DNA of 32,000 nt, taken from Pseudodesulfovibrio piezophilus C1TLV30 (lineage in GTDB: Bacteria; Desulfobacterota; Desulfovibrionia; Desulfovibrionales; Desulfovibrionaceae). A model generated the notes under the pieces. It was not told the origin of the DNA and did not search any database. It worked only from the letters and a program-made list of their open reading frames with translations. The position numbers and the translations under genes are program-made. Within the stretch, counting starts at the first letter, position 1; each line of letters starts with the position of its first letter. The stretch is from NCBI RefSeq assembly GCF_000341895.1, contig NC_020409.1:570001-602000 (forward strand), written 5' to 3'. This document shows positions 7,944-26,779 of the stretch, in pieces.

Positions 7944-8797
7944 TATTGCACCTTGACACTGTCAGGGGTCATAAAAACAGCCTGTACTCTCTTGCCATTT
8001 CCACCAACAACCTCACTTCGATTTTCCTTGGCGTAAAAATTAATGACGTCACCTGTTAAACTGTTAGGACCATCCTGTAATTGAGGATTATCTTCCATCC
8101 GAAGCACTTGACGACTGACAAAATAAATCAACTTGCCACATGATCCTCGTGAACGCCCTTTTTGGGCTTTCACACTCCCTTCTGCTACGATTTTATCAAT
8201 ACTGTCAGCCGAAAATTTTTTATCAGAGCTCGAAGCAAGGTATGCAGACAATTTATGGGCCCAAAGAGTTAAATCACCATGTTCAGCAACGACATTTCCA
8301 ACAAAAGAAACCATCTTCCCACTCTCATCATAAATCATGCGTTCTGAAGATATCTTGATAGGAACTCTTCCCGGAGTGACACCAAATGCACTTGGTGAAA
8401 AAGGAGCTTCTGCTTGAACGTCGGCCTTGACTTCACCTTCCCCACTGGGAGGTAAAGGTATTGAAGAAACTACGATATCTTTCTCATTTTCCTGCTTCAT
8501 CTGGGCCGGTGCCAAAAAACGCATATGAGAATATCCAAGAGCATCCTTCTCGTCATGTGCGGTGGCATTGAGGTCGAAGACGGCCCCCCAATTCCCTTCA
8601 ACAAAATCAACTTTGACTTTCTGTCCTTTTAACAAGGTGACTCTGTGTTTACTCTGAGCAGTTCTCTTGGCTCGAACATTCAAATTCTGAGTGGCTTCAC
8701 GGATTTCCCCCCACCCATCGGCGTAAACCGAAGATGCAGCAACCATGATGCAGACACAAAAAATTATGGAGAGGGAAATACGTTTCATAGAAAACAC
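7943..8797 (-). CDS. LptA/OstA-family periplasmic protein with N-terminal SH3b-like extension
   Basis: Signal peptide (…AASSVYA), then an SH3b-like segment (NLNVRAKRTAQSKHRVTLLKGQKVKVDFVEGNWGAV), a linker, and an OstA-like C-terminal half. It lies between lptC and lptB. The start is GTG 8797 or ATG 8788. Confidence 0.7.
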   Translation of the reverse strand: MFSMKRISLSIIFCVCIMVAASSVYADGWGEIREATQNLNVRAKRTAQSKHRVTLLKGQKVKVDFVEGNWGAVFDLNATAHDEKDALGYSHMRFLAPAQMKQENEKDIVVSSIPLPPSGEGEVKADVQAEAPFSPSAFGVTPGRVPIKISSERMIYDESGKMVSFVGNVVAEHGDLTLWAHKLSAYLASSSDKKFSADSIDKIVAEGSVKAQKGRSRGSCGKLIYFVSRQVLRMEDNPQLQDGPNSLTGDVINFYAKENRSEVVGGNGKRVQAVFMTPDSVKVQ

Positions 8798-8806
8798 ACC
8801 ATATCT

Positions 8807-9409
8807 CTATTTATTAAGGGACATACCACTATATTTTTGGGGAGAGAATAAGGCCTCGACCCCGCCAGCTGCGATGAGTTCGCGACTAATCAGATCAATT
8901 TCAACGGCTGCACCAGTCAATGTCATATCAGGTCTACGAACAATGACGCCACCTTTAAGGTAGACCTTATGCATGGCACCAACATAATCGAGATGTTGAG
9001 CAAGCAATTCAATATCACCAAACCGGCCCGTCACATTATCATATAAGGTCAGATTATCATTGGATTGATCAACATCGCCAAGATCAGCCTTGACATAGAC
9101 TTCTTGTCGATCTTCGCCATAAAAAGCTGTCAATTGGGGATGCTCAACGCCAATGAGTTTTCTTTCCTGATTGTACTGAGCTTTTTTTGCAAGCAACTTC
9201 CACGTCATAGCCCCCTGCTTTCCTTGGACCAGTTCTATATCTTGCGCTACAATATCTGATTGATCCAAAATTTCATCTCGACTGCCACCTCCCGAAGCTT
9301 TTTCTGGAGTGACAAGAATATCGGTGAAAAAAGTCTCCTTGATAGCTATCCCCAAGAGCAAACCAAGAGCAAAAATGAGTATAAAGAAAAGCGCAGAACG
9401 CCTTTTCAT
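8807..9409 (-). CDS. lptC: LPS export system protein LptC
   Basis: A single N-terminal membrane anchor (ALFFILIFALGLLLGIAI) plus an ~170-aa periplasmic domain. It holds the conserved kdsC-lptC-lptA-lptB position. Confidence 0.7.
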   Translation of the reverse strand: MKRRSALFFILIFALGLLLGIAIKETFFTDILVTPEKASGGGSRDEILDQSDIVAQDIELVQGKQGAMTWKLLAKKAQYNQERKLIGVEHPQLTAFYGEDRQEVYVKADLGDVDQSNDNLTLYDNVTGRFGDIELLAQHLDYVGAMHKVYLKGGVIVRRPDMTLTGAAVEIDLISRELIAAGGVEALFSPQKYSGMSLNK

Positions 9410-9937
9410 CTAGTCTACCCACCGCTTCATGGCATCTTCAAATAAGCCACGAGCTTTGAGAATATAGCTAATGGCTTCACGAACCGCACCATGGCCTCCA
9501 CGCTTAGTAGAGACCCAATCTGCAATCTCAAGAACTTCGGGCATGGCATTGGACACACTCATCGCGAGTCCGGCATATTTCATTACTCCGAGGTCAATCC
9601 AGTCATCTCCAATAAATGCAGCTTCAGATGGCTTTATTCCTATTTTATCACACATTTCAATCAAGTAAGGAACTTTTCGATGATTGCCAGCATAATAATG
9701 CTTAATACCAAGCTCAGAGATTCTTTTTTCAACCGGAGGTTGATCCAACCCGGTGATAACACCAATTTCAAGCCCTGCCGTCTGGGCGAGTTTGATACCG
9801 AGACCATCCTGAACATTAAACCGTTTCATGACCATACCTTCATTGGTATAGTACAAACCTCCATCTGTTAAAACCCCATCAACATCAAGCACAAGCAATT
9901 TTATATTCTGGGCAAGCTTGAAAGCACGATCAGCCAT
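9410..9937 (-). CDS. kdsC: 3-deoxy-D-manno-octulosonate 8-phosphate phosphatase (HAD-IIIA)
   Basis: DVDGVLTDG and GDDWIDL HAD motifs; 175 aa; 8-nt overlap with kdsA. Confidence 0.85.
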
Positions 9938-14486: not shown

Positions 14487-14579
14487 GGAGAGGTAGCGAA
14501 GTCCGGCCGTAACGCGCTCGACTCGAAATCGAGTTATGGGTCAAACCATACGTGGGTTCGAATCCCACCCTCTCCGCCA
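14487..14579 (+). tRNA. tRNA-Ser (anticodon CGA), class II with long variable arm, encoded CCA
   Basis: Acceptor GGAGAGG/CCTCTCC, anticodon stem CTCGA/TCGAG with loop CT-CGA-AA, long variable arm, T-arm GTGGG-TTCGAAT-CCCAC, discriminator G plus CCA. Confidence 0.9.
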
Positions 14580-14580
14580 T
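14560..14580 (+). repeat. attL core (3' end of tRNA-Ser)
   Basis: GAATCCCACCCTCTCCGCCAT, repeated at 20739-20760 with one extra C. Confidence 0.8.
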
Positions 14581-14643
14581 TGACAGCTAAGTCATCATTA
14601 TGACTAAAAATATAAGTAATAAAGTAGGTTCCGACTCCAAGAG

Positions 14644-14664
14644 GGTACACCAATCTGGTACACC
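14644..14664 (+). repeat. Direct 8-mer repeat GGTACACC x2 (13-nt period) just upstream of the integrase SD
   Basis: GGTACACC at 14644-14651 and at 14657-14664. Candidate operator or arm-type site. Confidence 0.5.
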
Positions 14665-14677
14665 TGAGGAGTCTACT

Positions 14678-16351
14678 ATGACCAAACCAGCCTACTTATT
14701 TCGCTCCAAAACTGGACTGTTCTACTTCCGTAGGAAAGTTCCTGCTGACCTCCTGACCGTCTATGGTGGGAGGAAACAAATCAAAAGATCATTACAGACC
14801 CATGACCCTCAGGAAGCCTATGAGCTTGTGAGGATTGAGGCCGTGCGCTCTGACCAAGAGTTCACTGAGCATAGGAAGATCATCAAGAGAGACAATAGCA
14901 GGAGACCGTCTGAGTCTTCTACACCTATGTCTGTACCTGAGATGAAACGCCGTGCATTACTGATGAAGCAACACATGCTGGAAGTTGATGATGAGCTACG
15001 TGTTTCAGGTGGATTCATTGAAGATGAAGACCACGAAGGCTACCTCCTCAGGTCTCAGGAACAGCTTGATGACATCAAACAAGCCTATGCCCGTGGGGAT
15101 GTAGATGCAGTCAAATCCCATATAAGGGAATGGACGAAGAATGAATCTGACATCCCTTATGAAGTGTCCTTGGAGTACATGAAGGCTTTGATTGAAGCCA
15201 CTGAGATACAGCTTGCAAGGAAGCAAGGTGAGATCATACTTACACCTGAGGTTCCTCCAAGTGAGGATGAGATACAGGTGGAAGTACCTGACCAGACTCC
15301 CGACAAGATCAAAGGCAATACCCTACGGAGCGTCTTCAAGAAGTACGTCGAGGAGCGACAGCCCAAAGGGAATACCGCTCGTGACTACCTTGCCCATATC
15401 CATAGGTTCACTCAGGTCTTAGGGGTTGATGACATAGCCCTTGATGACGTTACCCCTACTCATATCCGTACATTCAAGGATGTACTGGTACAGCTTCCTG
15501 CACGGGTTCCCAGTGAGATGAAGGGAATGACTGTCCTTGAGATGGTCAAGGCCATGAAGGGACGGGATGATATAGCACCACTCTCCGCAAAGACTATCAA
15601 TGACAAGGCTCTGAGCGCACTCAGGGCGGTCTATGGCTATGCTGTGAGGAATGGCTACTGTGACCATAACCCTGCACAGGGCATCAAGGTAGAAGTCTCC
15701 CTGAGGAAGCAGAAGGCTGGCAGCGACAGACTCCCATACTCTGTTGAAGACATGAATAAGATATTTCGTTTCCCGGTCTACACCGAGAATGACAGACCCA
15801 TAGGCGGGAAAGGTGAAGCTGCATACTGGCTACCACTACTGGCTGCGTTCACTGGCGCACGACTTGAGGAGCTTGGTCAGATTACCAAGGACAACGTGAG
15901 GAAGGAACGAGGCGTTCACTACATTGACCTCAGGGAACTTGATGAAGCCAAGACTGAGAACAGTAAGCGCAGGATACCAATACACCCTGAACTGATTAAA
16001 CTTGGCTTCCTGACCTACGTGAAGTCCATTAAGAGTGGACGGATATTCCCCGACCTACAGCGAGGTAAGGATGGTAAACTGACCTCCTCATTCTCAAAAT
16101 GGTGGGGAAGATATGCCCGTCAACACGGTGGTTGGGGTAAAGAGAAAGTGTTCCATTCCTTCCGTCACGCTGCCAAGGATGGCTTCCGAGAAGGTGACGT
16201 AGCAGAAGACCTGAGGGATGAACTCATGGGTCATGCTCCTAGGACCGTAGGCGAGTCCTATGGGTCTGGTAGTTCAATCAAGAGATTGTCTGAGGGAATG
16301 AGTAGGCTTACTTATCCCGGTCTTGATCTGTCGCATTTGACGAAGTGGTAG
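14678..16351 (+). CDS. Tyrosine-type site-specific integrase (large, ~557 aa)
   Basis: GAGGAG SD 6 nt before ATG 14678 (the ORF track start 14600 is an alternative). The N-terminal GLFYFRRKVP segment is typical of island integrases. C-terminal catalytic pattern: GARLEEL (R), HSFRH (HxxR), MGH, ESYG (Y). Confidence 0.9.
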   Translation: MTKPAYLFRSKTGLFYFRRKVPADLLTVYGGRKQIKRSLQTHDPQEAYELVRIEAVRSDQEFTEHRKIIKRDNSRRPSESSTPMSVPEMKRRALLMKQHMLEVDDELRVSGGFIEDEDHEGYLLRSQEQLDDIKQAYARGDVDAVKSHIREWTKNESDIPYEVSLEYMKALIEATEIQLARKQGEIILTPEVPPSEDEIQVEVPDQTPDKIKGNTLRSVFKKYVEERQPKGNTARDYLAHIHRFTQVLGVDDIALDDVTPTHIRTFKDVLVQLPARVPSEMKGMTVLEMVKAMKGRDDIAPLSAKTINDKALSALRAVYGYAVRNGYCDHNPAQGIKVEVSLRKQKAGSDRLPYSVEDMNKIFRFPVYTENDRPIGGKGEAAYWLPLLAAFTGARLEELGQITKDNVRKERGVHYIDLRELDEAKTENSKRRIPIHPELIKLGFLTYVKSIKSGRIFPDLQRGKDGKLTSSFSKWWGRYARQHGGWGKEKVFHSFRHAAKDGFREGDVAEDLRDELMGHAPRTVGESYGSGSSIKRLSEGMSRLTYPGLDLSHLTKW

Positions 16352-17027
16352 ACTCAACAGCAACGTTGTGGGAAGGCCCGTCCATCACTTTCTGACCTAT
16401 CAAAGTACCTATTATTGAGAAGAAAGCCACTGGCACAGCGACGATCAGTCCAACCTTTATAGAGTCCTTATTTCTTTGAAGAAAGGAGGTAACTTCCTCT
16501 GGACCTTTGATATACACTTCTGCTTTGATTTGTAGGCTACGCATTTCATAATATGCCCAAGCCAAGTATGCAAAATTAATGGGAAGCATCCACAGAATTT
16601 CTACCAGAGTGATAGAGTCCTTCATTATGGATTTAATCGAAGCGTAACCAACTGGGATTATCAACAGATAGAATAACCACGAGTATCTATTTAAGATCGT
16701 CCTCTTTCTCTCTGCGGCTTGTAGTATGGCATCAATTTCATGGAAAGCCGCTATTGGTTCAGGAGCGTCACTCGAAATACTTAGTGAAGTGTTCTTGGAT
16801 ACTGAGAGGTAAACATAGGGGTTTGAAGAGTCTATTGTTAGGTAGTCTAGCTCCTTCCCTTTATTCACTTCTTTCAATTCATCAATACTATCAAAGACAT
16901 AATCCCCGTCACGTATCTCAATATCCTCAGAATACTTCAATAACACAGCAACAATTCGTTCAATATCACCGATGAACAGTTTAGGGGCGCGATAACGACC
17001 ACTAGGCAGCTTCCTGATTTTCCTCAT
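16308..17027 (-). CDS. Hypothetical membrane protein (soluble N-domain plus 3 predicted TM helices)
   Basis: GGAGAG SD before ATG 17027 (GTG 17060 is an alternative). TM candidates are YSWLFYLLIIPVGYASI, LVEILWMLPINFAYLAWAYY and VGLIVAVPVAFFSIIGTLIG. I recognise no family. The 3' end overlaps the integrase 3' end by 44 nt (convergent). Confidence 0.6.
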   Translation of the reverse strand: MRKIRKLPSGRYRAPKLFIGDIERIVAVLLKYSEDIEIRDGDYVFDSIDELKEVNKGKELDYLTIDSSNPYVYLSVSKNTSLSISSDAPEPIAAFHEIDAILQAAERKRTILNRYSWLFYLLIIPVGYASIKSIMKDSITLVEILWMLPINFAYLAWAYYEMRSLQIKAEVYIKGPEEVTSFLQRNKDSIKVGLIVAVPVAFFSIIGTLIGQKVMDGPSHNVAVESTTSSNATDQDRDK

Positions 17028-17231
17028 AATCTCTCCAAATCTTTCAATATGCCTTATCACTTACCCCAAATAAATTCGACTACAAAATGTGAAGGGATGT
17101 ATAATACGTATACAACCGCGATTCCCCCCTTGCCTACCTGTCTACCAGCCTGAGAGGGATTAATTCCTTCCTCTACACACCCACCACATTCTCTACAATC
17201 TGCCACCATTCCCGGCGTAATTCAGAGCTTG

Positions 17232-17254
17232 AACGCGACAGATAACGCGACAGA
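17232..17254 (+). repeat. Tandem 11-mer AACGCGACAGA x2 (12-nt period)
   Basis: AACGCGACAGA-t-AACGCGACAGA, read directly at 17232-17242 and 17244-17254. Confidence 0.8.
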
Positions 17255-17742
17255 CTCCCGGCAACCGTTGGTATCACTACATCTACACTAGATACTATAT
17301 CTCCTAGAGTAACATACTCGCCGCCATTCCCACCTGAATGAGCATGAATGGAGGGGCTGTATGACAGCCAGTAGCGACCCTGTAGCCATCCACCTCACTA
17401 TCCATATAAATCTGAGCCACTTGTCTCTTAGATATACCGGTACTGTGATTACTAGACACTTAAAGATAATGAAGCGCACCCATTGGGATGCACATGCGAA
17501 TTATCAAGTGCAGTATGCAGCCATATGTGAGGCTGACTTAGAGGATGCCTGAACAAATGATACAGTGCTTCGGCAAACAACATCTCCCTCACAGTCACCT
17601 CACATATGGTGGCTATACTCACACCCAATCATTTCTGAATGGCCTATCGACCTCTACCCTGAGGTCTACCCTTGTCTCTTCTCCATTCGTTTGGAGTTCA
17701 TGCGTGGAGTGCAAACCACGTATGTATTGCGACCCATGGCAG

Positions 17743-17777
17743 CGTCACTAGCTCTCCCTGCTAGTGGCGTTGTTGTG
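17743..17777 (+). terminator. Terminator-like or attenuator-like hairpin about 90 nt upstream of the island operon
   Basis: CGTCACTAGC (17743-17752) pairs with GCTAGTGGCG (17760-17769): 10 bp including one G-U, loop TCTCCCT. It is followed by TTGTTGTG. Confidence 0.4.
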
Positions 17778-17857
17778 CGTTGGTGAGGTGGTGTGGGAGG
17801 TCTATTCGTTTCAAATTCTGCACCCATAGGGTGACACAAACAGGAGGCATATCAACT

Positions 17858-18145
17858 ATGCACACGGCAGATGAACAGGCTGACAAGCCCACTAAGACGT
17901 ACCTGACAAGAGGTAAGGATTCTAAGCGGATGTACTTCTACTCCGATAAGATGACCCTCTACAACTTCTACCTCATCAAAGGGTTCTACACTGAGAACCT
18001 TGGAGGGCAGGAGGTATCCACCTCTATCATCATGCGGAGAGCCTTGGAGCTACTGGCAAGGAATGTAGAGGCTATCTCTGAGGCTGGCTCCCCGGTCAAT
18101 GAGGTGAAGGATGAACTCTCACTGTTGTTCAGGAAGGTGCAGTAG
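17858..18145 (+). CDS. Small putative ribbon-helix-helix DNA-binding protein (95 aa)
   Basis: AGGAGG SD 10 nt before ATG 17858. KRMYFYSDKMTLYNFYLIKGF...VSTSIIMRRALELLARN fits a beta-strand/helix/helix RHH layout. This is a fold guess from the sequence pattern only. Confidence 0.55.
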   Translation: MHTADEQADKPTKTYLTRGKDSKRMYFYSDKMTLYNFYLIKGFYTENLGGQEVSTSIIMRRALELLARNVEAISEAGSPVNEVKDELSLLFRKVQ

Positions 18146-18147
18146 AC

Positions 18148-18453
18148 ATGAACGTAGACGTAAACAACATGACCAAGGAACAGCAAGAGATGCACGAAGC
18201 CATGATGACTGAGCTATGGTTTGTGACTCTCACTGCCACCATTGCGACCATGAAGCTCCCTGCCGACCAGATCAAGGCGGCACAGTTAGCACAGGCGCGA
18301 GGGTTCCTACTCGACAATGGAATTACCTTTGAGAGCCTGAACCCAATGAGGGCGCAGGAAGCTATGCAACAGGCATACACAACCATATTGAAAGACCTCC
18401 CGACACCGGAGGAACTGGACGCACGATTAAATGGAGAACAACATGACCAGTAA
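18148..18453 (+). CDS. Hypothetical protein (101 aa), helical, no recognised family
   Basis: AGGAAGG SD; the ATG lies 2 nt after the preceding stop (translational coupling). Confidence 0.5.
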   Translation: MNVDVNNMTKEQQEMHEAMMTELWFVTLTATIATMKLPADQIKAAQLAQARGFLLDNGITFESLNPMRAQEAMQQAYTTILKDLPTPEELDARLNGEQHDQ

Positions 18454-18625
18454 GAAGCAAGAGATACGCAAAGATGGCACGACTGTACGGAAGACCTGTG
18501 ACAACGGCGGGAAGCTGCCTGTCCTCACTATTGTTGATGCACCTGTAGGGACTGACAAGGACTGTGACTACAAGACCAAGGTTCCTCAGGGGCTTGGGAA
18601 TGTGACGTTGGCGCGAGGCAAGTAG
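18443..18625 (+). CDS. Hypothetical small protein (60 aa)
   Basis: GGAGAA SD 4-5 nt before ATG 18443 (18431 is an alternative). It overlaps the previous gene's end, and the next gene's ATG directly abuts its stop. Confidence 0.4.
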   Translation: MTSKKQEIRKDGTTVRKTCDNGGKLPVLTIVDAPVGTDKDCDYKTKVPQGLGNVTLARGK

Positions 18626-18883
18626 ATGGCTATACCTGAGAAGTATCGAGGATTCACATACACAGGAAAGATTCTGACTCTGAAACCGGAAGAGAAGCTG
18701 ACTGATGAAGAGATAATAGAATGGTTGCGAAGTATGGAACGAATTGGACAACCTCAGGCACTATACCCCGCAGGACTCTTGCGAATTGCTGAGAGGACTG
18801 AGGATGGTCATTACTTACTCCCGCCTCCTGAGGTGTGGGTAGAGCCTACTCCGAGGAAGTGGAGAGACATTAAGGGAGACTGA
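18626..18883 (+). CDS. Hypothetical protein (85 aa)
   Basis: The ATG lies immediately after the TAG of the preceding gene; GAGG SD upstream; no recognised family. Confidence 0.5.
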   Translation: MAIPEKYRGFTYTGKILTLKPEEKLTDEEIIEWLRSMERIGQPQALYPAGLLRIAERTEDGHYLLPPPEVWVEPTPRKWRDIKGD

Positions 18884-18884
18884 T

Positions 18885-19343
18885 ATGACGAACAAACATG
18901 AGAGGCTTACCTTGGAAGCCAATGCGATCTTCGTCAGCGCACAGATACAGATAAGGCACAAACTCAATCCTGAACAGGTGGAGACCTACCGGAACAACTA
19001 CCTGAATGGTATTGATATGCCGCCTATTGAGATTGCTCTGTTAGGTAATAGATATTGGGTAGTGGACGGGTTCCACCGTCTAGCAGCTATGAAGACTATC
19101 AACCCTGCCTACCCTGTTGATGCAATTCTCTTGAAGGGAATGTCACAAGCCAAGGTTAGGTGGAGGGCTGCGTCTGCGAACATGCAACACGGCCTACCTC
19201 TGACACGTACTGAGAAGCAACAGGCGTTCAAGGTCTTTGTGGGTCTCAAGATGAACCGTAAGACTTCCAAGAGGAAGCCCCTGAGGGATTGCGGCCCTAA
19301 GGACTTCATGTCCAGAAGTGGGTTCACTTTATCGGACCACTGA
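18885..19343 (+). CDS. ParB/Srx N-terminal-domain protein, 3' end apparently interrupted by IS insertion
   Basis: YWVVDGFHRLAA (DGxHR ParB-like motif) and NMQHGLPLTRTEKQQAF. GGGAGA SD. The stop codon TGA 19341-19343 is the first three bases of the IS terminal inverted repeat. Confidence 0.65.
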   Translation: MTNKHERLTLEANAIFVSAQIQIRHKLNPEQVETYRNNYLNGIDMPPIEIALLGNRYWVVDGFHRLAAMKTINPAYPVDAILLKGMSQAKVRWRAASANMQHGLPLTRTEKQQAFKVFVGLKMNRKTSKRKPLRDCGPKDFMSRSGFTLSDH

Positions 19344-19392
19344 GCGGCGAATTTAAGGTGGACAGTTTTACGTGTTACGCCGCCTTGTGGGT

Positions 19393-19424
19393 CCATCCCA
19401 GAGGGGGTACCCCCTCTGGGATGG
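19393..19424. repeat. Perfect 32-nt palindrome inside the IS, downstream of orfB
   Basis: CCATCCCAGAGGGGGTACCCCCTCTGGGATGG; every position pairs (checked base by base). Confidence 0.9.
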
Positions 19425-19468
19425 GACCGCTTTGATATATCTCCATCGGCTTGCGTCCGTCAAAGGTC

Positions 19469-20284
19469 TTAAGAAGGACCCCAATTATTGTAGAAGTTAA
19501 ACCACCAGGCCAAGGCACTCCGCAGCTCACTTCCTGTCTCCAGTTCCCGCAAGTAGACACATTCGTATTTCAAAGACTTCCAGAGTCGTTCGATCATGAC
19601 GTTATCCATCCAGCGTCCTCGGCCATCCATTGAAATGCGGATGCCAGCATCCCGCAGAGTCTTTGTGAATTCATAGCTGGTGAACTGGCTCCCCTGGTCT
19701 GTGTTGAATATCTCAGGTTCTCCATAACGGTTGATCGCATCCTCCAAAGCTACGACACAAAAGTCGGCCTCCATCGTATTCGACAAACGCCACGACAATA
19801 CTGCCCGGCTATGCCAATCCATGATTGCCACGAGATACAAGAAGCCTCGTTTCATCGGAATGTAAGTAATGTCGGTACACCAAACTTGATTTGGCTTTGT
19901 GATCTTCATGTTCCGCAACAAATACGGATATATTTTGTGCTGTGGATGAGGATCACTCGTCCTCGGTTTTTGGTAAATCGCCATCAAGCCCATCTTGCGC
20001 ATAAGTCGTCTCACACGACCACGGCCAACCAGATGCCTTTCATCCCGCAGAATGTTGCGCATCTGGCGTGAGCCGAAAAATGGTAGCTCCATGAACAACT
20101 CGTCGATGCGTTTCATCAACTCCAAGTTATACGATGATTCGCCAATCGGCTGATAATAGTATGTTGAGCGTTGCAGTTTGAGGATTCTGCATTGTCGCCG
20201 GACGCTGAGTTGTGGATGCTCTTTGTCGACGACTTCACGCCTTCGCTCGCAGCTCAGATTTTGGCGAAGGCTTGTTGCAAAAAA
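19469..20284 (-). CDS. IS3-family transposase OrfB (DDE), expressed as an OrfAB fusion by -1 frameshift
   Basis: The orfB frame is open from the T-TTT-TTG slippery heptamer (plus-strand 20278-20284). It reads [31 protein letters not shown] (D), [11 protein letters not shown] (D), [10 protein letters not shown] (E). The C-terminal end appears frameshifted (see findings). Confidence 0.8.
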
Positions 20285-20541
20285 TCCTTCTCGATCAGAA
20301 GTTGGCCGATCTTAGCGTGCAGATCCTTGATATGTGCATCGTCCATTTGCTGGCTCTTCTCTGCCTTGCCAGAAAATGACGCGACAATACCTTCTTTGGC
20401 TTGTCGTTTCCACGTGGATATCTGGTTGGTGTGAACTCCATACTTGCTGGCCAGCTCGGAAAGTGTGTGCTCGCCAGACAAAGCGTCGAGGGCTACACGG
20501 GCTTTGAATTCAGCAGTAAATCTTCTTCTCTTCTTGGACAT
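20254..20541 (-). CDS. IS3-family transposase OrfA (HTH)
   Basis: AAGGAGG SD before ATG 20541. MSKKRRRFTAEFKARVALDALSGEHTLSELASKYGVHTNQISTWKRQ is the classic IS3 OrfA pattern. Confidence 0.85.
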   Translation of the reverse strand: MSKKRRRFTAEFKARVALDALSGEHTLSELASKYGVHTNQISTWKRQAKEGIVASFSGKAEKSQQMDDAHIKDLHAKIGQLLIEKDFLQQAFAKI

Positions 20542-20738
20542 CGAAAAGCCTCCTTCGGCTATCATATGTCCCCCCTTATACTGTGGTCCAGTTTCTTAGA
20601 CCCACTTCTCATATCAACTAGGATGGCTTAAAAAGTTGCTCAATTGCTATCGAACGCTAAATCTCAACTTGCCAACTGTCACACCGACACAAGAACTGAA
20701 AATATCAATGATTCCAGGAGACACAGGGATCAAGGCTT

Positions 20739-20760
20739 GAATCCCACCCCTCTCCGCCAT
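20739..20760 (+). repeat. attR core (partial duplicate of the tRNA-Ser 3' end)
   Basis: GAATCCCACCCCTCTCCGCCAT. It matches 14560-14580 apart from one extra C, and similarity stops at ...CCAT in both copies. Confidence 0.8.
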
Positions 20761-21116
20761 GGAGATAAAAGCCCCTGTTGTCTTTGAAAACTCAATGGTG
20801 ATAGAGGCTTTCTTTTGCCTATTTCTCGAGATAACTGGAAGTAAAATTTTACTTAAGACGCATCTCAATACGCCTCTCTTAGCGTGCATCCTAAAGTCAC
20901 TGATATTATTATGTTATAATCAAATTTTAGTTACCCCAATCGTGACAAAGTATTCGCTTTGGTCTGCATAAATGCATTCAATTTCTTTCCATCTGGTTAC
21001 AATACCAGTTCATTATGCGTCATAATTATATGATCGTACCCTATCACTCCCCTATCTATTTTACATAAAAATTAACATACTGGACTATTCCACAACCTTA
21101 CCCCTTCGACTTATTA

Positions 21117-22502
21117 ATGAATATTGACTTTAAAGCTCACAATTCTTCTATTAACTATCTTGATTCATTAAAAGAAATAATTGCCCTCACATGGCCTCAA
21201 CTTTTGATGATGCTCGCTCAGTTCCTAGTGGCACTAGCTGATATTGTTGTTGCAGGCCACATAAACAAGGAGGTCCAAGCCTCTCTGGGGTTAATTTCAA
21301 TTTCCATTTTTTTCTTTTTGATCATTGCGACAGCAATATCAAGCGGAGCTGTTGCAATCATATCTCAATCGTTGGGCGCAGGACAACGAAAGCGAGTAGA
21401 ACGTTATACTAGTCTTCTTTTTATCCTTGCAATCAGCTTCGGTATTTTTTTTACCATCGTATTCAGCGTGGCTAAAAATGCCTTCCTACAAATACTTAAC
21501 GTTCCAGAATCCATTCTCCCAATTACTGCATATTTTCTAAGTGTCTATCTTTACGTACTGCCTGCCTACTATTTATTGTTAAGCACAAATGCCATTTTTC
21601 AGGCGTACAAAAAAGTCAAGTTCCCACTCTACTCTATGTGTCTTATTACTTCGCTTAATGGGATTTTGGATTTTGGACTCGGGTTAGGACTCTGGGGATT
21701 TCCCTATTTGGGATATAGGGGGGTAGCCTGGGCAACATTCTGTTCAGTCACTTTGGGAGCCATTTGTAATGTTCATAATATGTATCGGACAGGACTTTTA
21801 GTCTTCCCACTCTTCCCACCTCTACGCTGGATACGCATTGCGTGGAGATGCCTCTATAGCTACGCATGGCCAGCTGCGATGACACAAATCTTATGGCAGG
21901 GAAGCTATATAATTCTTTACATCATAATCAGATATCTTCCCGTTGAACATGTGGGGCCACTTGCTGGTTTTGCAGCAGGTATGCGCATTGAATCCATTTT
22001 GCTCATGCCAGCATTCGCCTTAAACCTAACAGCATCCATCCTCATTGGGCAAACTCTGGGAAAAGGCCAACACGATAAAGCACAGAAAATTGCTCTGAAC
22101 ATCCTCGGGGTCGGAACCGCGGTCATAACGTTGGCAGCGCTCTGTCTATGGAACTTTCGTGTCCCTATTTTGGATTTCATTGCACCGGATGCGATCGTTC
22201 AAAAAAATACTCTCTCATACTTGTCATATGTACTCCCAGCCACTCCCTTTACAGTCGGAGCAATGATTCTAGGAGGAATTATGAATGGGGCTGGAGCAAC
22301 CTTTTATACGATGATCTCGTTTGGTATTACAGCCTGGTTTATCAGAATACCCTTAGCCTACTTTTCATGCCAGATTATCTGGCTCAATTCTGAAGGAATT
22401 TGGTTCTCCATACTGGTCTCACATGTCTGTCATTGCCTTTGTCTCTTGTTTATTTTCCAATTCATGAATTGGCGTAAATTTGCCATGCGCACCCCCCGAT
22501 AA
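21117..22502 (+). CDS. MATE-family efflux transporter
   Basis: About 12 TM helices. The N-terminal LTWPQLLMMLAQFLVALADIVVAGH and the repeated MatE-like halves fit the family. No obvious SD. Confidence 0.85.
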   Translation: MNIDFKAHNSSINYLDSLKEIIALTWPQLLMMLAQFLVALADIVVAGHINKEVQASLGLISISIFFFLIIATAISSGAVAIISQSLGAGQRKRVERYTSLLFILAISFGIFFTIVFSVAKNAFLQILNVPESILPITAYFLSVYLYVLPAYYLLLSTNAIFQAYKKVKFPLYSMCLITSLNGILDFGLGLGLWGFPYLGYRGVAWATFCSVTLGAICNVHNMYRTGLLVFPLFPPLRWIRIAWRCLYSYAWPAAMTQILWQGSYIILYIIIRYLPVEHVGPLAGFAAGMRIESILLMPAFALNLTASILIGQTLGKGQHDKAQKIALNILGVGTAVITLAALCLWNFRVPILDFIAPDAIVQKNTLSYLSYVLPATPFTVGAMILGGIMNGAGATFYTMISFGITAWFIRIPLAYFSCQIIWLNSEGIWFSILVSHVCHCLCLLFIFQFMNWRKFAMRTPR

Positions 22503-22623: not shown

Positions 22624-23223
22624 TTGTTTCAAACGAAGATATGGCGGATCATTTTGAACAATAAGGACAAAAGAAATGCAGAAGTTCTCTGCATTAATTA
22701 TGACGACTCCTTCAAGAAATTGTATAGAGCGAGTTTTGATTCATTGGTTTTGTACCTAAAAACACAATTCCGTTCATGCCCACAACAAGCAGAAGACATA
22801 GCCCAAAATGCTTTTGAAAAAATAGCGACTAGAAAAAATCCGGGACCCATTGGCAACATCAAGGCATTCCTCTGGCGCACAGCACATAATATCGCTATTT
22901 CCGATATACGTTCAAAACGATTGGCTACCAAATATCATGCAGAAACAAAGAATCTCTATGGGCAGGAAGAAGAATACCCTTTAACTCCTGAACGTATTTT
23001 AGAAGGGAAAGAACAGATTGGGCTGGCTGTACAGACACTTCGCCAAATGCCAGAGCAACGACGCAGAGCATTTATTTTAACAAGAATCGAAGGATTAAGC
23101 CACACCAAAGCCTCAGAAAAATTGGGAATATCTCGCCCAGCAGTCAGCAAACATGTTGCCAGAGCTACCTCCGATCTCTACACTGCATTGCATAATGAAC
23201 TCAGAAGCAGCACAAAAAAGTAA
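22624..23223 (+). CDS. ECF sigma factor, FecI-like
   Basis: Sigma-70 region 2 (AEDIAQNAFEKI...FLWRTAHNIAISDIR) and region 4 HTH (LSHTKASEKLGISRPAVSKHVARA). The gene is followed after 2 nt by a FecR gene. There is no in-frame ATG, so the start is TTG 22624 or TTG 22654. Confidence 0.8.
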   Translation: MFQTKIWRIILNNKDKRNAEVLCINYDDSFKKLYRASFDSLVLYLKTQFRSCPQQAEDIAQNAFEKIATRKNPGPIGNIKAFLWRTAHNIAISDIRSKRLATKYHAETKNLYGQEEEYPLTPERILEGKEQIGLAVQTLRQMPEQRRRAFILTRIEGLSHTKASEKLGISRPAVSKHVARATSDLYTALHNELRSSTKK

Positions 23224-23225
23224 CT

Positions 23226-24290
23226 ATGCATGAGATTGACGCAAATATCATAAACGTAGCCTGTCAGTGGCGCGCAACTTTGGCGGATGATCACGTTTCC
23301 ACCGTGGACAAAAACGCATTTGTCAAATGGCTCGAAGAAAACCCACTGCATAAAGAGGCCTATGAGCAAGTTGAAAAATTTTGGCAGGATCTGGAATTCT
23401 TAAAACAAGAATCTCTTGATGATTCTTTTTTCATTCCAACATGGCGAGAACGGACCAGATCCGTCGTGTGGAGAATACACGAGTGTATTAATAAAAAATC
23501 AAAGCCAGCGTTCTATGGTCTTGGAGGAGTGTGCGCGCTCGTACTGCTTGTATTTCTTTGTTTTCCCCAAATTATACTTTTTCCCTCGTATTCGGGGGAG
23601 ATCTTCGCCACTGGAATAGGAGAAAAAAAGACTCTTCACCTTGCCGACGGCAGCCGGATAACGCTGGGTGCTGACACATCAGTCAAGGTCACCTTCACTC
23701 GAACAAGCAGACATATACAAATGAGTACCGGTGAAGCATTTTATGAAGTAGCGAAAGATCCGAAAAGACCTTTTATCGTCGTGTCCGGAGAACATCAAAT
23801 CACAGTTCATGGCACAATATTTGATGTTCGTCATAATACCCAAAGAATACAGGTTGCAGTCAGAGAGGGAGTGGTAAGCGTAACAGCTTTACAAAAGATT
23901 TCTCCTTTGGATAGAACAAAGCCCCCCCAGCCTCCAACATCACACTCCCCTCTTGTACAATCCAAGATTCTGAAGGCTGGCGAACAACTGACAATCCTGG
24001 CTGAAAAAGGTTTACAGCCAGTTACTCACATCCAGCCTCAAAGCATTGGTCTATGGAGAAACAATATTCTAGCATATATCGACACACCTTTATCGGAAAT
24101 CGTAGCGGATATGAACAGATACCAAAGCCGAAAAATCAGTATCCATGATGCGCTCGTTGCAAATATAAAAATAACTGCCACATTCAATAGTAACGATGTT
24201 GATAAAACGCTCCAGACTCTAACAGAGATCTTGCCGATTCGGCTTGAATCCTCAACCGAGAGCTTACGTATTTATAGTGCTTTTAATTAA
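23226..24290 (+). CDS. FecR-family transmembrane anti-sigma / sensor protein
   Basis: Cytoplasmic anti-sigma N-domain (ACQWRATL...FVKWLEENPLHKEAYEQVEKFW), a single TM (AFYGLGGVCALVLLVFLCF) and a periplasmic FecR-type domain. Confidence 0.85.
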   Translation: MHEIDANIINVACQWRATLADDHVSTVDKNAFVKWLEENPLHKEAYEQVEKFWQDLEFLKQESLDDSFFIPTWRERTRSVVWRIHECINKKSKPAFYGLGGVCALVLLVFLCFPQIILFPSYSGEIFATGIGEKKTLHLADGSRITLGADTSVKVTFTRTSRHIQMSTGEAFYEVAKDPKRPFIVVSGEHQITVHGTIFDVRHNTQRIQVAVREGVVSVTALQKISPLDRTKPPQPPTSHSPLVQSKILKAGEQLTILAEKGLQPVTHIQPQSIGLWRNNILAYIDTPLSEIVADMNRYQSRKISIHDALVANIKITATFNSNDVDKTLQTLTEILPIRLESSTESLRIYSAFN

Positions 24291-24323
24291 TTTTCTTTAG
24301 ATATCACTTTTTACTCAGCCTAT

Positions 24324-24350
24324 GGTTACATCTCCCTCTTCTCGGGCGTC
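24324..24350 (+). promoter_or_regulatory. Candidate ECF-type promoter upstream of the TonB-dependent transducer
   Basis: GGTTAC-N17-CGTC resembles the generic ECF pattern GGAAC-N16/17-CGT. It lies about 60 nt before the probable GTG start. The match is weak. Confidence 0.25.
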
Positions 24351-24409
24351 TTATACAGTAGATGCGACTCAAACCGCATCAGCTAACACTTCCTGAGGAG
24401 GAAAATCAC

Positions 24410-26779
24410 GTGGTAACTTCGACTATTACTGTACCAAAATGCAACTCTTTTATAGCAACTTTCTTTTTTTTATTCATCACACTATTAGCCACTCAAGCAC
24501 TAGCTCAAGATGAGTATCGTGAATTAGACTTGCCACAGCAGTCTCTTCAAGAATCCTTGGTATCAGTTGGTAAAACATATGGAGTAACTATAGTTGCACC
24601 GAGTGATATTCTTCGAGATAAAATTGCACCACCAGTCTCCGGGCGGCTCTCTATTGAGCAAGCAATCAACCAACTGCTTCAAGACTCTGGACTTGAGAGG
24701 CAGCATTCATCTAACGGGTCTATTCTTCTCAAAAAAAAGGTCATCTTGACCAATACAGAGACGTCCTCCTCATCCAAAGCCTCGGATAAGAATGAAGAAC
24801 AGGGACTTCAACTTGCTCCCGTCATAGTCACCGGGGAACGGTCGGAACGCACACTGTATGAGACTGCGGCGTCCACTGCAGTCGTTTCAGGTGAAGACAT
24901 AGAGAAAACCCCTTCTTTCAAAGAAGTTGACGACATCCTTCAAACTATTCCAAACGTTGACCTGGGAGGAAACAGCAATGAAGGGCCAACAATCCGAGGT
25001 GTTAAAGCGGGTGGCCCATTAAGTGGAGTCTATGCCTTCTTTGGAGGCTCTCGGCCGAGGGCTACTATCACAGTTGATGGACGCTCTGTCAGTTTCGATG
25101 AATTCATATTTGGGGCCACCTCTGTATGGGATGTTCAAAGAGTCGAGGTTTTCCGAGGTCCACAAACCACTTCTCAGGGAGTAAACTCTATTGCTGGTGC
25201 CATTCATGTTGTCACCTCCGATCCTACATATGAACCACATTTCAAAGCACAGGCCGAGTACGGTGATTATAAAAGCGGCAGAATCTCAGCATCAGCTTCA
25301 GGCCCTCTTGTGGAAGACCAACTTGCCATTCTTCTGTCTGCAGATCTTCAACGAAGTGACAGTTTCATTGATATTCAGCCGACGTCGGATTATGGACCAG
25401 ACCCTAATACCTTTCTCAACGGCGTTATTCGAGGAAAGGTCTTGTGGGAGCCCACGAGTCTTCCTGAATTGAGAATGAAATTCACTCTCGGAAGCACTCG
25501 AAATGAGGCACCACAGGCTGAGTATGTCAAAACAACAGGCTCCATCAAAGACTTGAAGTCTATCTCTACGAATCTGCCGTCAAGACGTCTGATCGCGACG
25601 ACAGGAATACATGATGTTTCATATGAATTTTCAGATTCAATAAAGCTCAGCAACCGTTTTTCATACTCCGACATTGACAGCAATCGCTATGTTGATCTCC
25701 CAACATCTGGGAAAGCCAAATCGGAAAAAGATGAAGTATCCAATGAGACTACATTGCATTGGGAAAATCAGGAATCCGGATTGTCAGGGCTTATGGGGGT
25801 CTTTTACCAACACACCAATAGTGATGAATACCTCAATTACAGCCTTGCAGGAGAAGGGACTTTTGATGATTTGCAAACGAGTCTCGGACTCTACACTGAA
25901 GTGAATTACGATATCACGGACCGGTTGGATCTGACAATGGGGGTTCGGTATGAGCAAGACCGGCAGGACCGGTCAGGCGCAACTGTTGGCGGGAGTCTAT
26001 ACAACATAGACATGGAATATGACAAAACTTTTGAATCTATTCTTCCAAAAATATCGATCGGGTATGATGTATCTGATAATGTCAGAATTGGTGCACTTGT
26101 TTCACGAGGGTTCAACCCTGGTGGAGTGACACTTCTGTGGTCAGATGGCTCAACAAACTACTTCGATGAAGAAACAGTATGGAACTATGAGATATTCTCC
26201 CGTATCAAGTTACTTGAAAACCGACTCGTCCTTAACACCAATATCTTCTACGCAGATTACTCCGATTACCAACTCAATTATCTTGCCGGAGATTTCTATG
26301 GCAGCGCTGTTTATGGAATCGCCAATGCTGAAGAAGCTGTGAGCTACGGTCTTGAATTAAGTGCTGACTATCTCCCCACAGAGAAGCTCCACATCTACTC
26401 AGGGCTCGGCCTTCTTCAAACCGAGATTAAAAAATTCGATGATGCTGGTGGCATAGATGCTGAAGGTGCTTCATTCATGCGCTCTCCATCCATTACTTTG
26501 TCTCTCGGTGCTGATTATGAACTTATTAAAAATCTAACCATCGGTGGCCGCGCACGTTATGTGGGAGAATATAAAAGCGAAGATACCAACGATAGTCTTT
26601 CCGCAGGAGATTATGCTGTTGTCGATCTCCAGGCCAGTTATGAATACGACCCGTTTACCGTCTATGGATATGTCAACAATGTATTTGATTCATTTTATAC
26701 AATCAGTGAACTGACGGTTGGACGAGCAATTGTCGGCAATCCTCGAAAATTTGGTGTTGGCATAAAGTATAGCTTTTAG
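24410..26779 (+). CDS. TonB-dependent receptor/transducer with N-terminal STN signalling domain (FecA-like)
   Basis: GAGGAGG SD 8 nt before GTG 24410 (the ORF track ATG 24362 is an alternative). Features: signal peptide ...TQALA, STN domain (LDLPQQSLQESLVSVGKTYGVTIVAP), plug (APVIVTGER), and a beta-barrel ending GVGIKYSF. Confidence 0.9.
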   Translation: MVTSTITVPKCNSFIATFFFLFITLLATQALAQDEYRELDLPQQSLQESLVSVGKTYGVTIVAPSDILRDKIAPPVSGRLSIEQAINQLLQDSGLERQHSSNGSILLKKKVILTNTETSSSSKASDKNEEQGLQLAPVIVTGERSERTLYETAASTAVVSGEDIEKTPSFKEVDDILQTIPNVDLGGNSNEGPTIRGVKAGGPLSGVYAFFGGSRPRATITVDGRSVSFDEFIFGATSVWDVQRVEVFRGPQTTSQGVNSIAGAIHVVTSDPTYEPHFKAQAEYGDYKSGRISASASGPLVEDQLAILLSADLQRSDSFIDIQPTSDYGPDPNTFLNGVIRGKVLWEPTSLPELRMKFTLGSTRNEAPQAEYVKTTGSIKDLKSISTNLPSRRLIATTGIHDVSYEFSDSIKLSNRFSYSDIDSNRYVDLPTSGKAKSEKDEVSNETTLHWENQESGLSGLMGVFYQHTNSDEYLNYSLAGEGTFDDLQTSLGLYTEVNYDITDRLDLTMGVRYEQDRQDRSGATVGGSLYNIDMEYDKTFESILPKISIGYDVSDNVRIGALVSRGFNPGGVTLLWSDGSTNYFDEETVWNYEIFSRIKLLENRLVLNTNIFYADYSDYQLNYLAGDFYGSAVYGIANAEEAVSYGLELSADYLPTEKLHIYSGLGLLQTEIKKFDDAGGIDAEGASFMRSPSITLSLGADYELIKNLTIGGRARYVGEYKSEDTNDSLSAGDYAVVDLQASYEYDPFTVYGYVNNVFDSFYTISELTVGRAIVGNPRKFGVGIKYSF

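Follow-up and report, generated by a model that had tools for sequence, protein, structure and literature searches.

An IS-interrupted tRNA-Ser island of Pseudodesulfovibrio piezophilus carries the front of an operon of orphan genes and a truncated ParB/Srx gene

The island and its integration site

The window analysed here is a stretch of 32,000 nucleotides of the Pseudodesulfovibrio piezophilus C1TLV30 genome (NC_020409.1, positions 570,001 to 602,000 of the forward strand), and all coordinates below refer to it. Five small ORFs on the plus strand, at 17858-19343, sit inside a 6.2-kb island that is bounded on one side by a tRNA-Ser(CGA) gene and on the other by a repeat of the tRNA 3' end. 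The tRNA gene (14487..14579, plus strand), found by ARAGORN and scored at 57 bits by the Rfam tRNA model, serves as the integration target, with attL at its 3' end (about 14555-14583, GGTTCGAATCCCACCCTCTCCGCCATTGA; direct repeats D7 and D9), and a right-end remnant with attR, also located by direct repeats, lies at 20613..20763 on the plus strand (GGCTTGAATCCCACCCCTCTCCGCCATGGA; attR at 20734-20763). The attR region can be aligned to the right ends of four related elements, L063, L073, L074 and L076, which are described below. Adjoining the tRNA gene, a 583-aa ORF (14600..16351, plus strand; 557 aa in the NCBI annotation) encodes a tyrosine integrase with an N-terminal DUF6538 domain. It matches Pfam DUF6538 (4e-20), Phage_int_SAM_5 and Phage_integrase, as well as phrog_1 (6e-38), and shares 61-62% identity with its counterparts in L063, L073 and L074. 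With an integrase gene beside a tRNA gene whose 3' end is repeated at the opposite boundary, the locus is a tRNA-targeting tyrosine-recombinase island; the minimal integrative element proposed earlier from the sequence alone has thus been delimited by its tRNA-Ser, integrase, attL and attR.

Convergent with the integrase gene is a gene for a membrane-anchored protein with no assigned role (16308..17060, minus strand, with a likely true start at 17027), and the 3' ends of the two genes overlap by 44 nt. A single strongly hydrophobic segment spans residues 199-225 of the protein, which gave no family match in Pfam, PHROGs, PADLOC or NCBIfam. It is 29-34% identical to its counterparts in L063 and L074; the slot is variable, with an unrelated multi-TM protein occupying it in L073.

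A conserved noncoding control region

The membrane-protein gene and the five ORFs are separated by a conserved noncoding control region of about 800 nt (17061..17857, plus strand), defined by alignment of four elements. Its similarity extends over all frames and both strands, so it is conserved as DNA and not as coding sequence. A coding gene in this gap was considered and ruled out by six-frame comparison, in which conservation was found at the DNA level and not at the peptide level. Rfam reports the tRNA alone and no known RNA in the gap, and the gap has no match to phage DNA. A sigma-70-like promoter facing ORF1 is predicted at 17076-17105 (10 of 12 in the promoter scan), followed by two tandem copies of the 11-nt repeat AACGCGACAGA (17232-17254), the palindromes CTAGAT..ATCT and GAGTAACATACTC (17288-17319), and conserved blocks at about 17410-17445 and 17443-17478. 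The tandem repeats covary between elements. Block 4 (17443-17478), which reads ATTaCTcGACACTTAAAGATaAtGAAGC, is present in the same orientation in all five elements, with PWM scores of 37-46 bits. The core of ATTaCTcGACACTTAAAGATaAtGAAGC resembles T3, SP6 and K11 promoters (CACTAAAG, GACACTATAG).

A tightly packed operon of small genes

The operon begins with ORF1 (95 aa, 17858..18145), a candidate small DNA-binding regulator. It is followed by ORF2 (101 aa, 18148..18453), which is all-alpha and acidic (pI 4.5), ORF3 (60 aa, 18443..18625), which is basic (pI 9.5) and has no assigned role, and ORF4 (85 aa, 18626..18883), a strict ORFan that occupies the operon's variable slot. ORF5, as read, has 152 aa (18885..19343), and its 18885..19313 segment, 143 codons, is the 5' remnant of a ParB/Srx-HTH gene. 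All five are on the plus strand. Purine-rich SD motifs precede them (from ORF1 to ORF5, AGGAGG, GGAAGGTG, GGAG, GAGG and GGGAGA), and the junctions are, in the same order, a 2-nt gap, an 11-nt overlap between ORF2 and ORF3, 0 nt and a 1-nt gap.

Syntenic homologues of ORF1, ORF2, ORF3 and ORF5 are present in four other elements, and for the L073/L076 pair dN/dS is 0.06 for ORF1, ORF2 and the ParB gene and 0.28 for ORF3; the range of 0.06-0.28 indicates that the genes of the operon are real and under selection. The five ORFs, their SD motifs and their tight junctions, all described in the sequence-only reading, are thus upheld, four of the five ORFs by synteny and low dN/dS. The co-occurrence of the five genes, which that reading had named as a check, holds in part: ORF1, ORF2, ORF3 and the ParB gene occur together in the four relatives, but ORF4 has no homologue there, its position being taken by unrelated ORFs, and the conserved module includes just three of the four genes upstream of ParB. 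Among 1.84 billion representative proteins ORF4 matched only itself, and ORF1, ORF2 and ORF3 each have no more than one or two non-self homologues. Homologues of ORF1 are P0009 and P0010, in addition to the L074 and L076 copies; for ORF3 they are P0011 and the L063 and L074 copies, at 46-59% identity.

Past the ParB/Srx fold discussed below, nothing was assigned by Pfam, PHROGs, NCBIfam, PADLOC, PDB or Foldseek, and PADLOC gave no match below E=0.03 for ten element proteins; ORF3 has no family match. The earlier view that the genes belong to no characterised partition, defence or satellite family is therefore in line with our negative searches of Pfam, PHROGs, PADLOC and NCBIfam. The ribbon-helix-helix (RHH) fold that had been suggested for ORF1 found no such backing. 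ORF1 has no match in Pfam, PHROG, NCBIfam or PDB-sequence profile searches, hhalign against CopG, Arc and Mnt was negative, and its pattern, a beta-strand-like RMYFYSD and then G..S.S..(L/M)RRA, is compatible with an RHH protein by eye only.

For ORF2, the only family common to its homologues, below threshold, is the small terminase of the T7 gp18 type (PF11123/phrog_891). All five homologues match PF11123 at E<=0.5, the best at 6.2e-5 and 23.4 bits against a gathering cut-off of 27.5, and all five match phrog_891 (best 0.0046). Alignment by hhalign to seven gp18 sequences from diverse Autographiviridae (P=0.03, probability 1.6%) or to T7 gp18 alone (probability 0.6%) was not significant. The single-sequence AlphaFold model of ORF2 has a pLDDT of 56, and Foldseek with this model was uninformative. 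We keep the small-terminase identity of ORF2 only as a hint from the profile matches.

The ParB/Srx-type protein

The product of ORF5 is named 'ParB/Srx family N-terminal domain-containing protein' by NCBI. It matches phrog_1033 (5e-10) and, weakly, the profiles of sulfiredoxin, H. pylori Spo0J/ParB and SerK (E=0.1-0.7). The window protein is below threshold for Pfam ParB_N, and its homologue P0002 has a precomputed PF02195 annotation. DGFHR and N..HGL.L...E are invariant in the ParB alignment, with VDGFHRLAA present in the window protein, in L063 and in P0002. These profile matches and motifs place the N-domain in the ParB/Srx superfamily, as the motifs had led the sequence-only reading to propose. 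That reading had also noted the lack of ParA, relaxase and primase; neither the island nor the intact relatives yielded a ParA-type domain, and a relaxase or primase was not detectable in either.

Phage ParB-like relatives in IMG/VR are about 30% identical, and an SF2 helicase gene lies directly downstream in 47 of 61 viral loci, a linkage suggesting that these phage relatives belong to DNA-metabolism modules and not to partition loci. The 490-570-aa proteins encoded downstream of the phage genes had been candidates for large terminases; Pfam shows that they are SF2 helicases.

Insertion of an IS3-family element and loss of the distal genes

The ParB/Srx gene is interrupted after codon 143 by an insertion sequence (19314..20612, minus strand), with orfA at 20254-20565 and orfB at 19469-20125. 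Pfam matches are to rve (2e-27), HTH_21 (1e-12) and HTH_Tnp_1 (1.6e-12), and terminal inverted repeats are found at 19314-19340 and 20583-20609. Two consecutive ORFs, HTH_Tnp_1 and then the rve DDE core, between terminal inverted repeats identify it as an IS3-family element. DNA homology to L063 stops at 19313, and 19314-19343 is IS sequence, so that the final 10 codons of the '152-aa' ORF5, and its stop, come from the IS. At the protein level, the remnant and residues 1-143 of the L063 protein (253 aa) share 70% identity, and the alignment stops at residue 143, just ahead of the HTH of the relatives. The L063 protein runs on past this residue into an HTH and a C-terminal domain, and weak HTH matches are found in the relatives at residues ~142-161 (HTH_23, 0.004). 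Only the ParB/Srx N-domain is left in the window copy, its HTH and C-terminal dimerisation domain being absent.

No target-site duplication was found at the IS flanks (..GTCC and TATC.., read from the sequence). From the IS end to attR only about 120 nt are left, and about 3 kb of element DNA is missing between the ParB N-domain and the right-end remnant. Comparison with the relatives indicates that the ParB gene was hit by an IS3-family insertion and that an adjacent deletion took the HTH and C-terminal half of this gene together with the genes for a 219-aa and a 361-aa protein. The window copy is therefore a decaying, probably immobile remnant, and the module is almost certainly non-functional in P. 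piezophilus. IS elements are scarce in the P. piezophilus genome (PMC3559428), and the interrupting element is one of the few.

Intact relatives

The four syntenic relatives, L063, L073, L074 and L076, are 7.8-10.6 kb long and have a common gene order, tRNA target and att core; tRNA-Ser is also the target of L073, L074 and L075. As is usual for mobile islands, the cargo varies, with a DNA methylase and a 292-aa ORF in L074, and the same tRNA is also used by other islands. In their left half, the integrase gene is followed by the variable membrane-protein gene on the opposite strand, the ~800-nt noncoding control region and ORF1 to ORF3. The right half holds one or two variable ORFs, the ParB/Srx-HTH gene, genes for a 219-aa Zn-ribbon-like protein and a ~361-aa protein, a small ORF and attR. 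The ParB-like protein of the relatives has 249-267 aa with an HTH. Of the distal genes, those for the 219-aa and ~361-aa proteins, both deleted from the window copy, are the two best conserved. The ORFs in the window are the promoter-proximal front of a single rightward operon of at least eight genes in a small integrative element. They do not make up a complete five-gene operon with ParB at its end, as previously read: the IS interrupts the ParB gene, and the distal genes are deleted.

The AF2 model of the 361-aa protein, built from a 4-sequence alignment, has a pLDDT of 52, with the C-terminal domain alone near 75 and a poor N-terminal half. Foldseek found no match for it in the PDB, and PHROGs gave no match to the protein.

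The family comprises five known copies in all, the window copy included, so that comparative inference is thin. No member was found in IMG/VR viral contigs, and profile scans with the 219-aa and 361-aa proteins of IMG/VR and JGI metagenomes gave no further members. A scan of GTDB genomes with the ParB profile returned just ~30%-identical alphaproteobacterial and planctomycete relatives, located in different islands.

Proposed explanation and alternatives

We favour, with moderate confidence, a reading in which small integrative elements that depend on a helper (satellite-like) form a new family, of which the locus is a decayed copy. No replication, packaging-motor, capsid or conjugation genes could be recognised with Pfam, PHROGs, NCBIfam or PADLOC, intact relatives included, and we therefore infer that the intact element would depend on a helper; since its genes match no characterised family, it would be an unclassified, probably helper-dependent island. 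The DUF6538-type tyrosine integrase inserts the intact element of ~8 kb into the 3' end of tRNA-Ser(CGA). ORF1 may be a small regulator or excision cofactor whose sites would be the conserved control-region repeats and palindromes. The ParB/Srx-HTH protein, with DGFHR in place of the GERR CTP patch, might act as a sequence-specific DNA-binding or DNA-processing protein for the excised element and not as a ParABS clamp. The helper would most likely be a phage, which would make the element satellite-like, and helper packaging may be steered to the element by ORF2, as a gp18-like small terminase.

A narrower form of this reading, which we consider improbable, is that of a new class of minimal satellites parasitising T7-like podophages of Desulfovibrionaceae, that is, phages with a single-subunit RNA polymerase. 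ORF2 would then be a gp18-type small terminase redirecting the packaging of the helper, the motif ATTaCTcGACACTTAAAGATaAtGAAGC would be a promoter for the helper RNA polymerase, through which helper infection would switch the operon on, and replication and capsid assembly of the ~8-kb genome would fall to the ParB/Srx-HTH, 219-aa and 361-aa proteins.

Alternatively, the element may be integrative and mobilisable, riding on conjugation with an oriT in the noncoding region, while a conjugative element would provide relaxase and T4SS in trans. ORF1, if RHH-like, and the ParB/Srx-HTH protein could be relaxosome accessory or DNA-processing factors. RHH proteins often serve relaxosomes in an accessory role, and ParB-like proteins are encoded by conjugative elements. 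The conserved palindromes and repeats of the noncoding region would suit this, as would the failure to find relaxase and replication genes in the element itself. However, none of the five elements encodes a MOB, T4CP or T4SS-related domain, the searches for an RHH fold in ORF1 were negative, and the sole recurrent family hint, that of ORF2, is phage-related; we regard mobilisation as unlikely. That the operon is cargo, a novel defence or anti-defence module with a nuclease-like ParB/Srx effector and small partners on an ordinary integrase island, appears rather unlikely. ParB/Srx domains do occur in nucleases and defence-associated proteins, and the island has variable slots, among them that of the membrane protein, which could be a second defence or exclusion gene; the methylase and the 292-aa ORF of L074 are such cargo. 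Against cargo, PADLOC was negative for every protein scanned, an elaborate conserved control region precedes the operon, and in every copy it is the operon, and not a variable cargo region, that accompanies the integrase as the conserved core, a pattern typical of element-maintenance genes.

The two remaining explanations seem very unlikely to us. One makes the element a very small temperate virus or virus-like element, in which the ~361-aa and 219-aa proteins would be divergent structural or replication proteins and the five ORFs early genes. The compact unidirectional layout with overlapping genes fits this, and the best BFVD matches of the 361-aa model are phage scaffolding and capsid-assembly proteins (E=0.03-0.05, one with a probability of 0.98), but these superimpose with an rmsd of about 22 Å and are not significant. 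Moreover, the 361-aa protein gave no match to T7 gp9 in hhalign, searches for capsid, portal, ATPase and Rep folds found none, and IMG/VR holds no member. The other would have the ParB-like protein act as a centromere-binding partition protein, stabilising the excised circle as an episome with a ParA from host or helper. The succession of a ParB/Srx N-domain and an HTH in the intact relatives agrees with such a role, and the repeated motifs of the control region could be parS-like sites. Yet the GERR arginine patch for CTP clamping is replaced by DGFHR, no copy has a ParA or a replication gene to sustain an episome, and the genes beside the phage relatives encode SF2 helicases, not partition proteins.

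If the intact relatives are mobile, they would constitute a new family of "hitcher" elements, very small and integrative, in sulfate-reducing bacteria, in which the biology of phage satellites and mobilisable islands is almost unexplored. Save for the integrase and the non-canonical ParB/Srx-HTH protein, their conserved core consists entirely of orphan proteins. Mobile relatives would be further evidence for widespread minimal helper-dependent islands that escape satellite finders keyed on AlpA, primase and terminase. They would also offer a tractable case for a role of DG.HR-type ParB/Srx proteins outside partition, to which the pairing of phage ParB-like proteins with SF2 helicases is a related lead. 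The window locus itself is an IS-inactivated, decayed remnant, and the intact relatives are the better experimental material.

Comparison with known systems

Canonical ParB proteins of ParABS systems have the ParB/Srx N-domain fold in common with the protein described here, but in the latter DGFHR stands for the GERRxR CTP-binding motif and no ParA accompanies it; the features of a CTP clamp were not found. The phage proteins of phrog_1033 ('ParB-like partition protein') resemble it in having an N-domain with DG.HR and N..HG motifs followed by an HTH; theirs pair with an SF2 helicase, whereas the partners here are the orphan 219-aa and 361-aa proteins. ORF2 is similar to T7 gp18 (PF11123, DNA_Packaging_2) in its length of about 90-100 aa, its all-alpha character and a central L..A....LLD......L.P segment, but its score is under the gathering threshold and no large terminase gene is nearby.

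With PICI, SaPI and P4 satellites the element shares a tyrosine integrase specific for a tRNA or att site, a divergent control region and a rightward operon whose small genes are tightly packed. Like SaPI and PICI with their TerS, it may also have a small terminase of its own, although the candidate, ORF2, resembles the T7 gp18 type only below threshold. It differs in having no homologues of a Stl/Str-type repressor, Pri-Rep, Cpm/Ccm, Sid/Psu/Delta or alpha-primase and in being half the usual size; no PHROG or Pfam match to PICI, SaPI, P4 or PLE hallmarks was found in the window, in L063 or in the 361-aa family. PICMI, the phage-inducible chromosomal minimalist islands of Vibrionaceae, are defined by int, alpA and a primase gene (DUF3987/DUF5906) and are usually inserted next to fis (PMC10803314). 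They too are very small integrase islands (6-8 kb) with few genes, most without an assigned role, and large noncoding regions (PMC10803314), without genes for capsid remodelling or packaging motors and with a presumed dependence on a helper. In contrast to PICMI, the element described here has int only, with no AlpA or primase among the window and L063 proteins, and it resides in tRNA-Ser, with a ParB/Srx-HTH gene and an orphan core of its own.

Organization of the island in the window

ORF1 to ORF5, the five small plus-strand genes of the sequence-only reading, lie inside a 6.2-kb island bounded on the left by tRNA-Ser(CGA) (14487-14579) and on the right by attR (20734-20763), a 29-30-nt imperfect copy of the tRNA 3' end that pairs with attL. 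The 583-aa tyrosine integrase (14600-16351) has DUF6538, SAM-like and catalytic domains, and the minus-strand gene of a 250-aa membrane-anchored protein converges on it. These two genes overlap by 44 nt at the integrase 3' end (16308-16351), as they also do in L063, L073, L074 and L076, the contigs with intact relatives of the island. ORF1 (17858-18145, 95 aa), ORF2 (18148-18453, 101 aa), ORF3 (18443-18625, 60 aa), ORF4 (18626-18883, 85 aa) and ORF5, the ParB/Srx-like gene (18885-19343, 152 aa), are arranged exactly as claimed, each behind a purine-rich Shine-Dalgarno motif and with tight junctions: ORF1 and ORF2 are 2 nt apart, ORF2 and ORF3 overlap by 11 nt, ORF3 abuts ORF4 (0 nt), and 1 nt separates ORF4 from ORF5. 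Two 37-nt stretches in direct repeat, 78% identical to each other (18163-18199 and 18437-18473), span the sequences that code for the N-termini of ORF2 and ORF3, encoding NNMTKEQQEM and NNMTSKKQEI, respectively; the repeat may have arisen by duplication of a translation-initiation region, or may be due to chance. Beyond the island, a 461-aa multi-pass membrane protein (21117-22502) is followed by three plus-strand ORFs in a row (199, 354 and 805 aa; 22624-26779), resembling by eye an ECF sigma factor, anti-sigma factor and TonB-dependent receptor cluster.

Truncation by an IS3-family element

NCBI has a protein with 100% identity to the 152-aa product of ORF5 under the name "ParB/Srx family N-terminal domain-containing protein". 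The ORF5 product is 70% identical to a full-length 253-aa relative up to residue 143, beyond which the relative goes on into an HTH and a C-terminal domain of about 100 aa. DNA homology to this relative stops at 19313; therefore, the "152-aa" ORF takes its final ten codons and its stop from the IS. The apparent five-gene operon with ParB at its end is an artefact produced by this truncation. The IS3-family element (19314-20612, minus strand) directly follows the ParB-like N-domain. It contains orfA (20254-20565) and orfB (19469-20125), has HTH_Tnp_1, HTH_21 and rve domains, and ends in imperfect terminal inverted repeats (19314-19340 and 20583-20609); a perfect 16+16-nt palindrome (19393-19424) lies in its 3' untranslated end. 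Its two flanks show no target-site duplication, implying an adjacent deletion, and only about 120 nt separate it from attR. We infer that an IS-associated deletion took away the rest of the element. The window copy is thus disrupted, having lost the HTH and C-terminal half of ParB and the two best-conserved distal genes, and is probably dead. IS elements are few in the P. piezophilus genome (PMC3559428).

Intact relatives and the conserved operon

An exhaustive HMMER search with concatenated ORF1-4 against 1.84 billion representative proteins returned two non-self homologues each for ORF1 and ORF2, one for ORF3 and none for ORF4. The contigs of the ORF1-3 homologues, together with contigs found by integrase, yielded four intact syntenic elements: L063 (~7.9 kb), L073 (~8.0 kb, sharing its chromosomal neighbourhood with the window island), L076 (~7.8 kb) and L074 (10.6 kb, with a DNA methylase and a 292-aa ORF as extras). 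Each of the four has the same tRNA-Ser and att core at its boundaries. Their conserved order is integrase, opposite-strand membrane protein (a variable slot, occupied by an unrelated protein in L073), a noncoding region of about 800 nt, ORF1, ORF2, ORF3, one or two unrelated small ORFs, ParB/Srx-HTH (249-267 aa), a 219-aa protein whose N-terminus is Cys-rich (64-69% identity among copies), a 361-364-aa protein (43-60%) and a 56-62-aa ORF. Window ORF4 occupies the variable slot of the operon. Of the five genes, ORF1, ORF2, ORF3 and ParB belong to the conserved core; ORF4 is outside it.

For the close pair L073/L076, dN/dS is 0.06 each for ORF1, ORF2 and ParB and 0.28 for ORF3; the 219-aa protein has 0.085 and the 361-aa protein 0.18. 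These values show that the genes are real and evolve under purifying selection. No further family members came out of scans of IMG/VR, JGI metagenomes and GTDB genomes, and among 5.8 billion clusters there are four members of the 361-aa family. These comparisons show a tRNA-Ser-specific integrative element family, in whose conserved operon ORF1-ORF5 form the proximal portion.

In L074 (17100-20510), an HTH_7 fragment, the 292-aa ORF and a C5 DNA methyltransferase separate the 361-aa gene from attR and look like a restriction-modification module; their position makes the right end of the element a cargo slot. Other islands also occupy the tRNA-Ser(CGA) site: L075 has a partial DUF6538 integrase there (70% identical) with wholly different cargo, and in L076 a second DUF6538 integrase (7971-9722) stands in tandem immediately past attR.

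Control region

The gap of about 800 nt between the minus-strand membrane-protein gene and ORF1 contains a noncoding control region (17061-17857) with blocks conserved in all five elements (L063 2456-3269, L073 12507-13273, L074 12345-13178, L076 2473-3333). Searches against Rfam and phage DNA gave no match to it. A predicted sigma-70-like promoter (17076-17105) faces ORF1, and two palindromes are found at 17288-17319. Tandem repeats of 9-11 nt with 12-nt spacing (AACGCGACAGA twice in the window, ATTTCAACAC twice in L074) differ in sequence between element subgroups, suggesting a putative co-evolving protein-binding site. A conserved block of about 30 nt (17443-17478 in the window) is present in one or two copies per element; its core, GACACTTAAAGA, resembles promoters of single-subunit phage RNA polymerases.

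Relationships of the encoded proteins

The ParB-like protein matches phrog_1033 (5e-10), and its profile gives weak matches to sulfiredoxin, H. pylori ParB and SerK. Its motif reads DGFHR where the CTP-binding patch has GERRxR, and, as the sequence-only reading held, no ParA is present beside it; a ParB/Srx-superfamily DNA-binding protein is therefore predicted, rather than a canonical partition clamp. Relatives of about 30% identity occur on 61 IMG/VR contigs, 47 of which have an SF2 helicase (ResIII, DEAD, Helicase_C) nearby, as the next gene in 36 and next but one in 11, making a conserved gene pair; these phage relatives are genes of DNA metabolism, not partition. A DGQHR-motif paralogue of about 280 aa often lies between the two genes. 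More distant ParB/Srx-HTH relatives on L001 and L065-L068, mostly alphaproteobacterial (L001 is a metagenome contig), adjoin RNase H, serine resolvase and DUF6538-type integrases, in L068 beside tRNA-Val; these neighbours suggest a wider association of the subfamily with small integrase islands.

The sequence pattern of ORF1 is RHH-compatible; profile searches gave no RHH support. ORF2 is all-alpha, and all five family members match phrog_891 and PF11123 (T7 gp18 small terminase; best 6.2e-5, under the gathering score); the hhalign comparison with gp18 was not significant. For ORF3, ORF4 and the 219-aa and 361-aa proteins, searches of Pfam, PHROGs, NCBIfam, PADLOC and PDB sequences all gave no match. 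The AF2 model for the 361-aa protein is of low confidence and gave no significant Foldseek match; its best BFVD matches are phage scaffold or capsid-assembly proteins (E=0.03-0.05, poor superposition). Profile and structure searches thus bear out the earlier view that the genes have no characterised match.

Lifestyle and comparison with known systems

No replication, packaging-motor, capsid or conjugation genes are recognisable in the intact elements, which are therefore most likely helper-dependent hitchers. A phage satellite-like lifestyle is favoured, with even chances overall of being right. The conserved sites of the control region would be the targets of ORF1 and the ParB/Srx-HTH protein, and ORF2 would possibly be a small terminase. 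The gp18-like ORF2 and the phage-promoter-like block point to a satellite of a T7-like phage, a narrower reading that we consider improbable.

Four rival readings are less likely. The element might be a conjugation-mobilised IME or a tiny undescribed virus; its operon might be a novel defence cargo module, although PADLOC matches none of the proteins; or it might serve episome partition, against which stand the DGFHR motif and the missing ParA. Compared with these, the satellite-like reading is preferred. Such a rare family of orphan elements merits testing, in its intact relatives.

The element does not show the combination of int, alpA and primase that defines PICMI, and it likewise falls outside PICI, P4 and PLE, as well as ParABS. 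It is best called a variation on the theme of small integrative or satellite-like islands.
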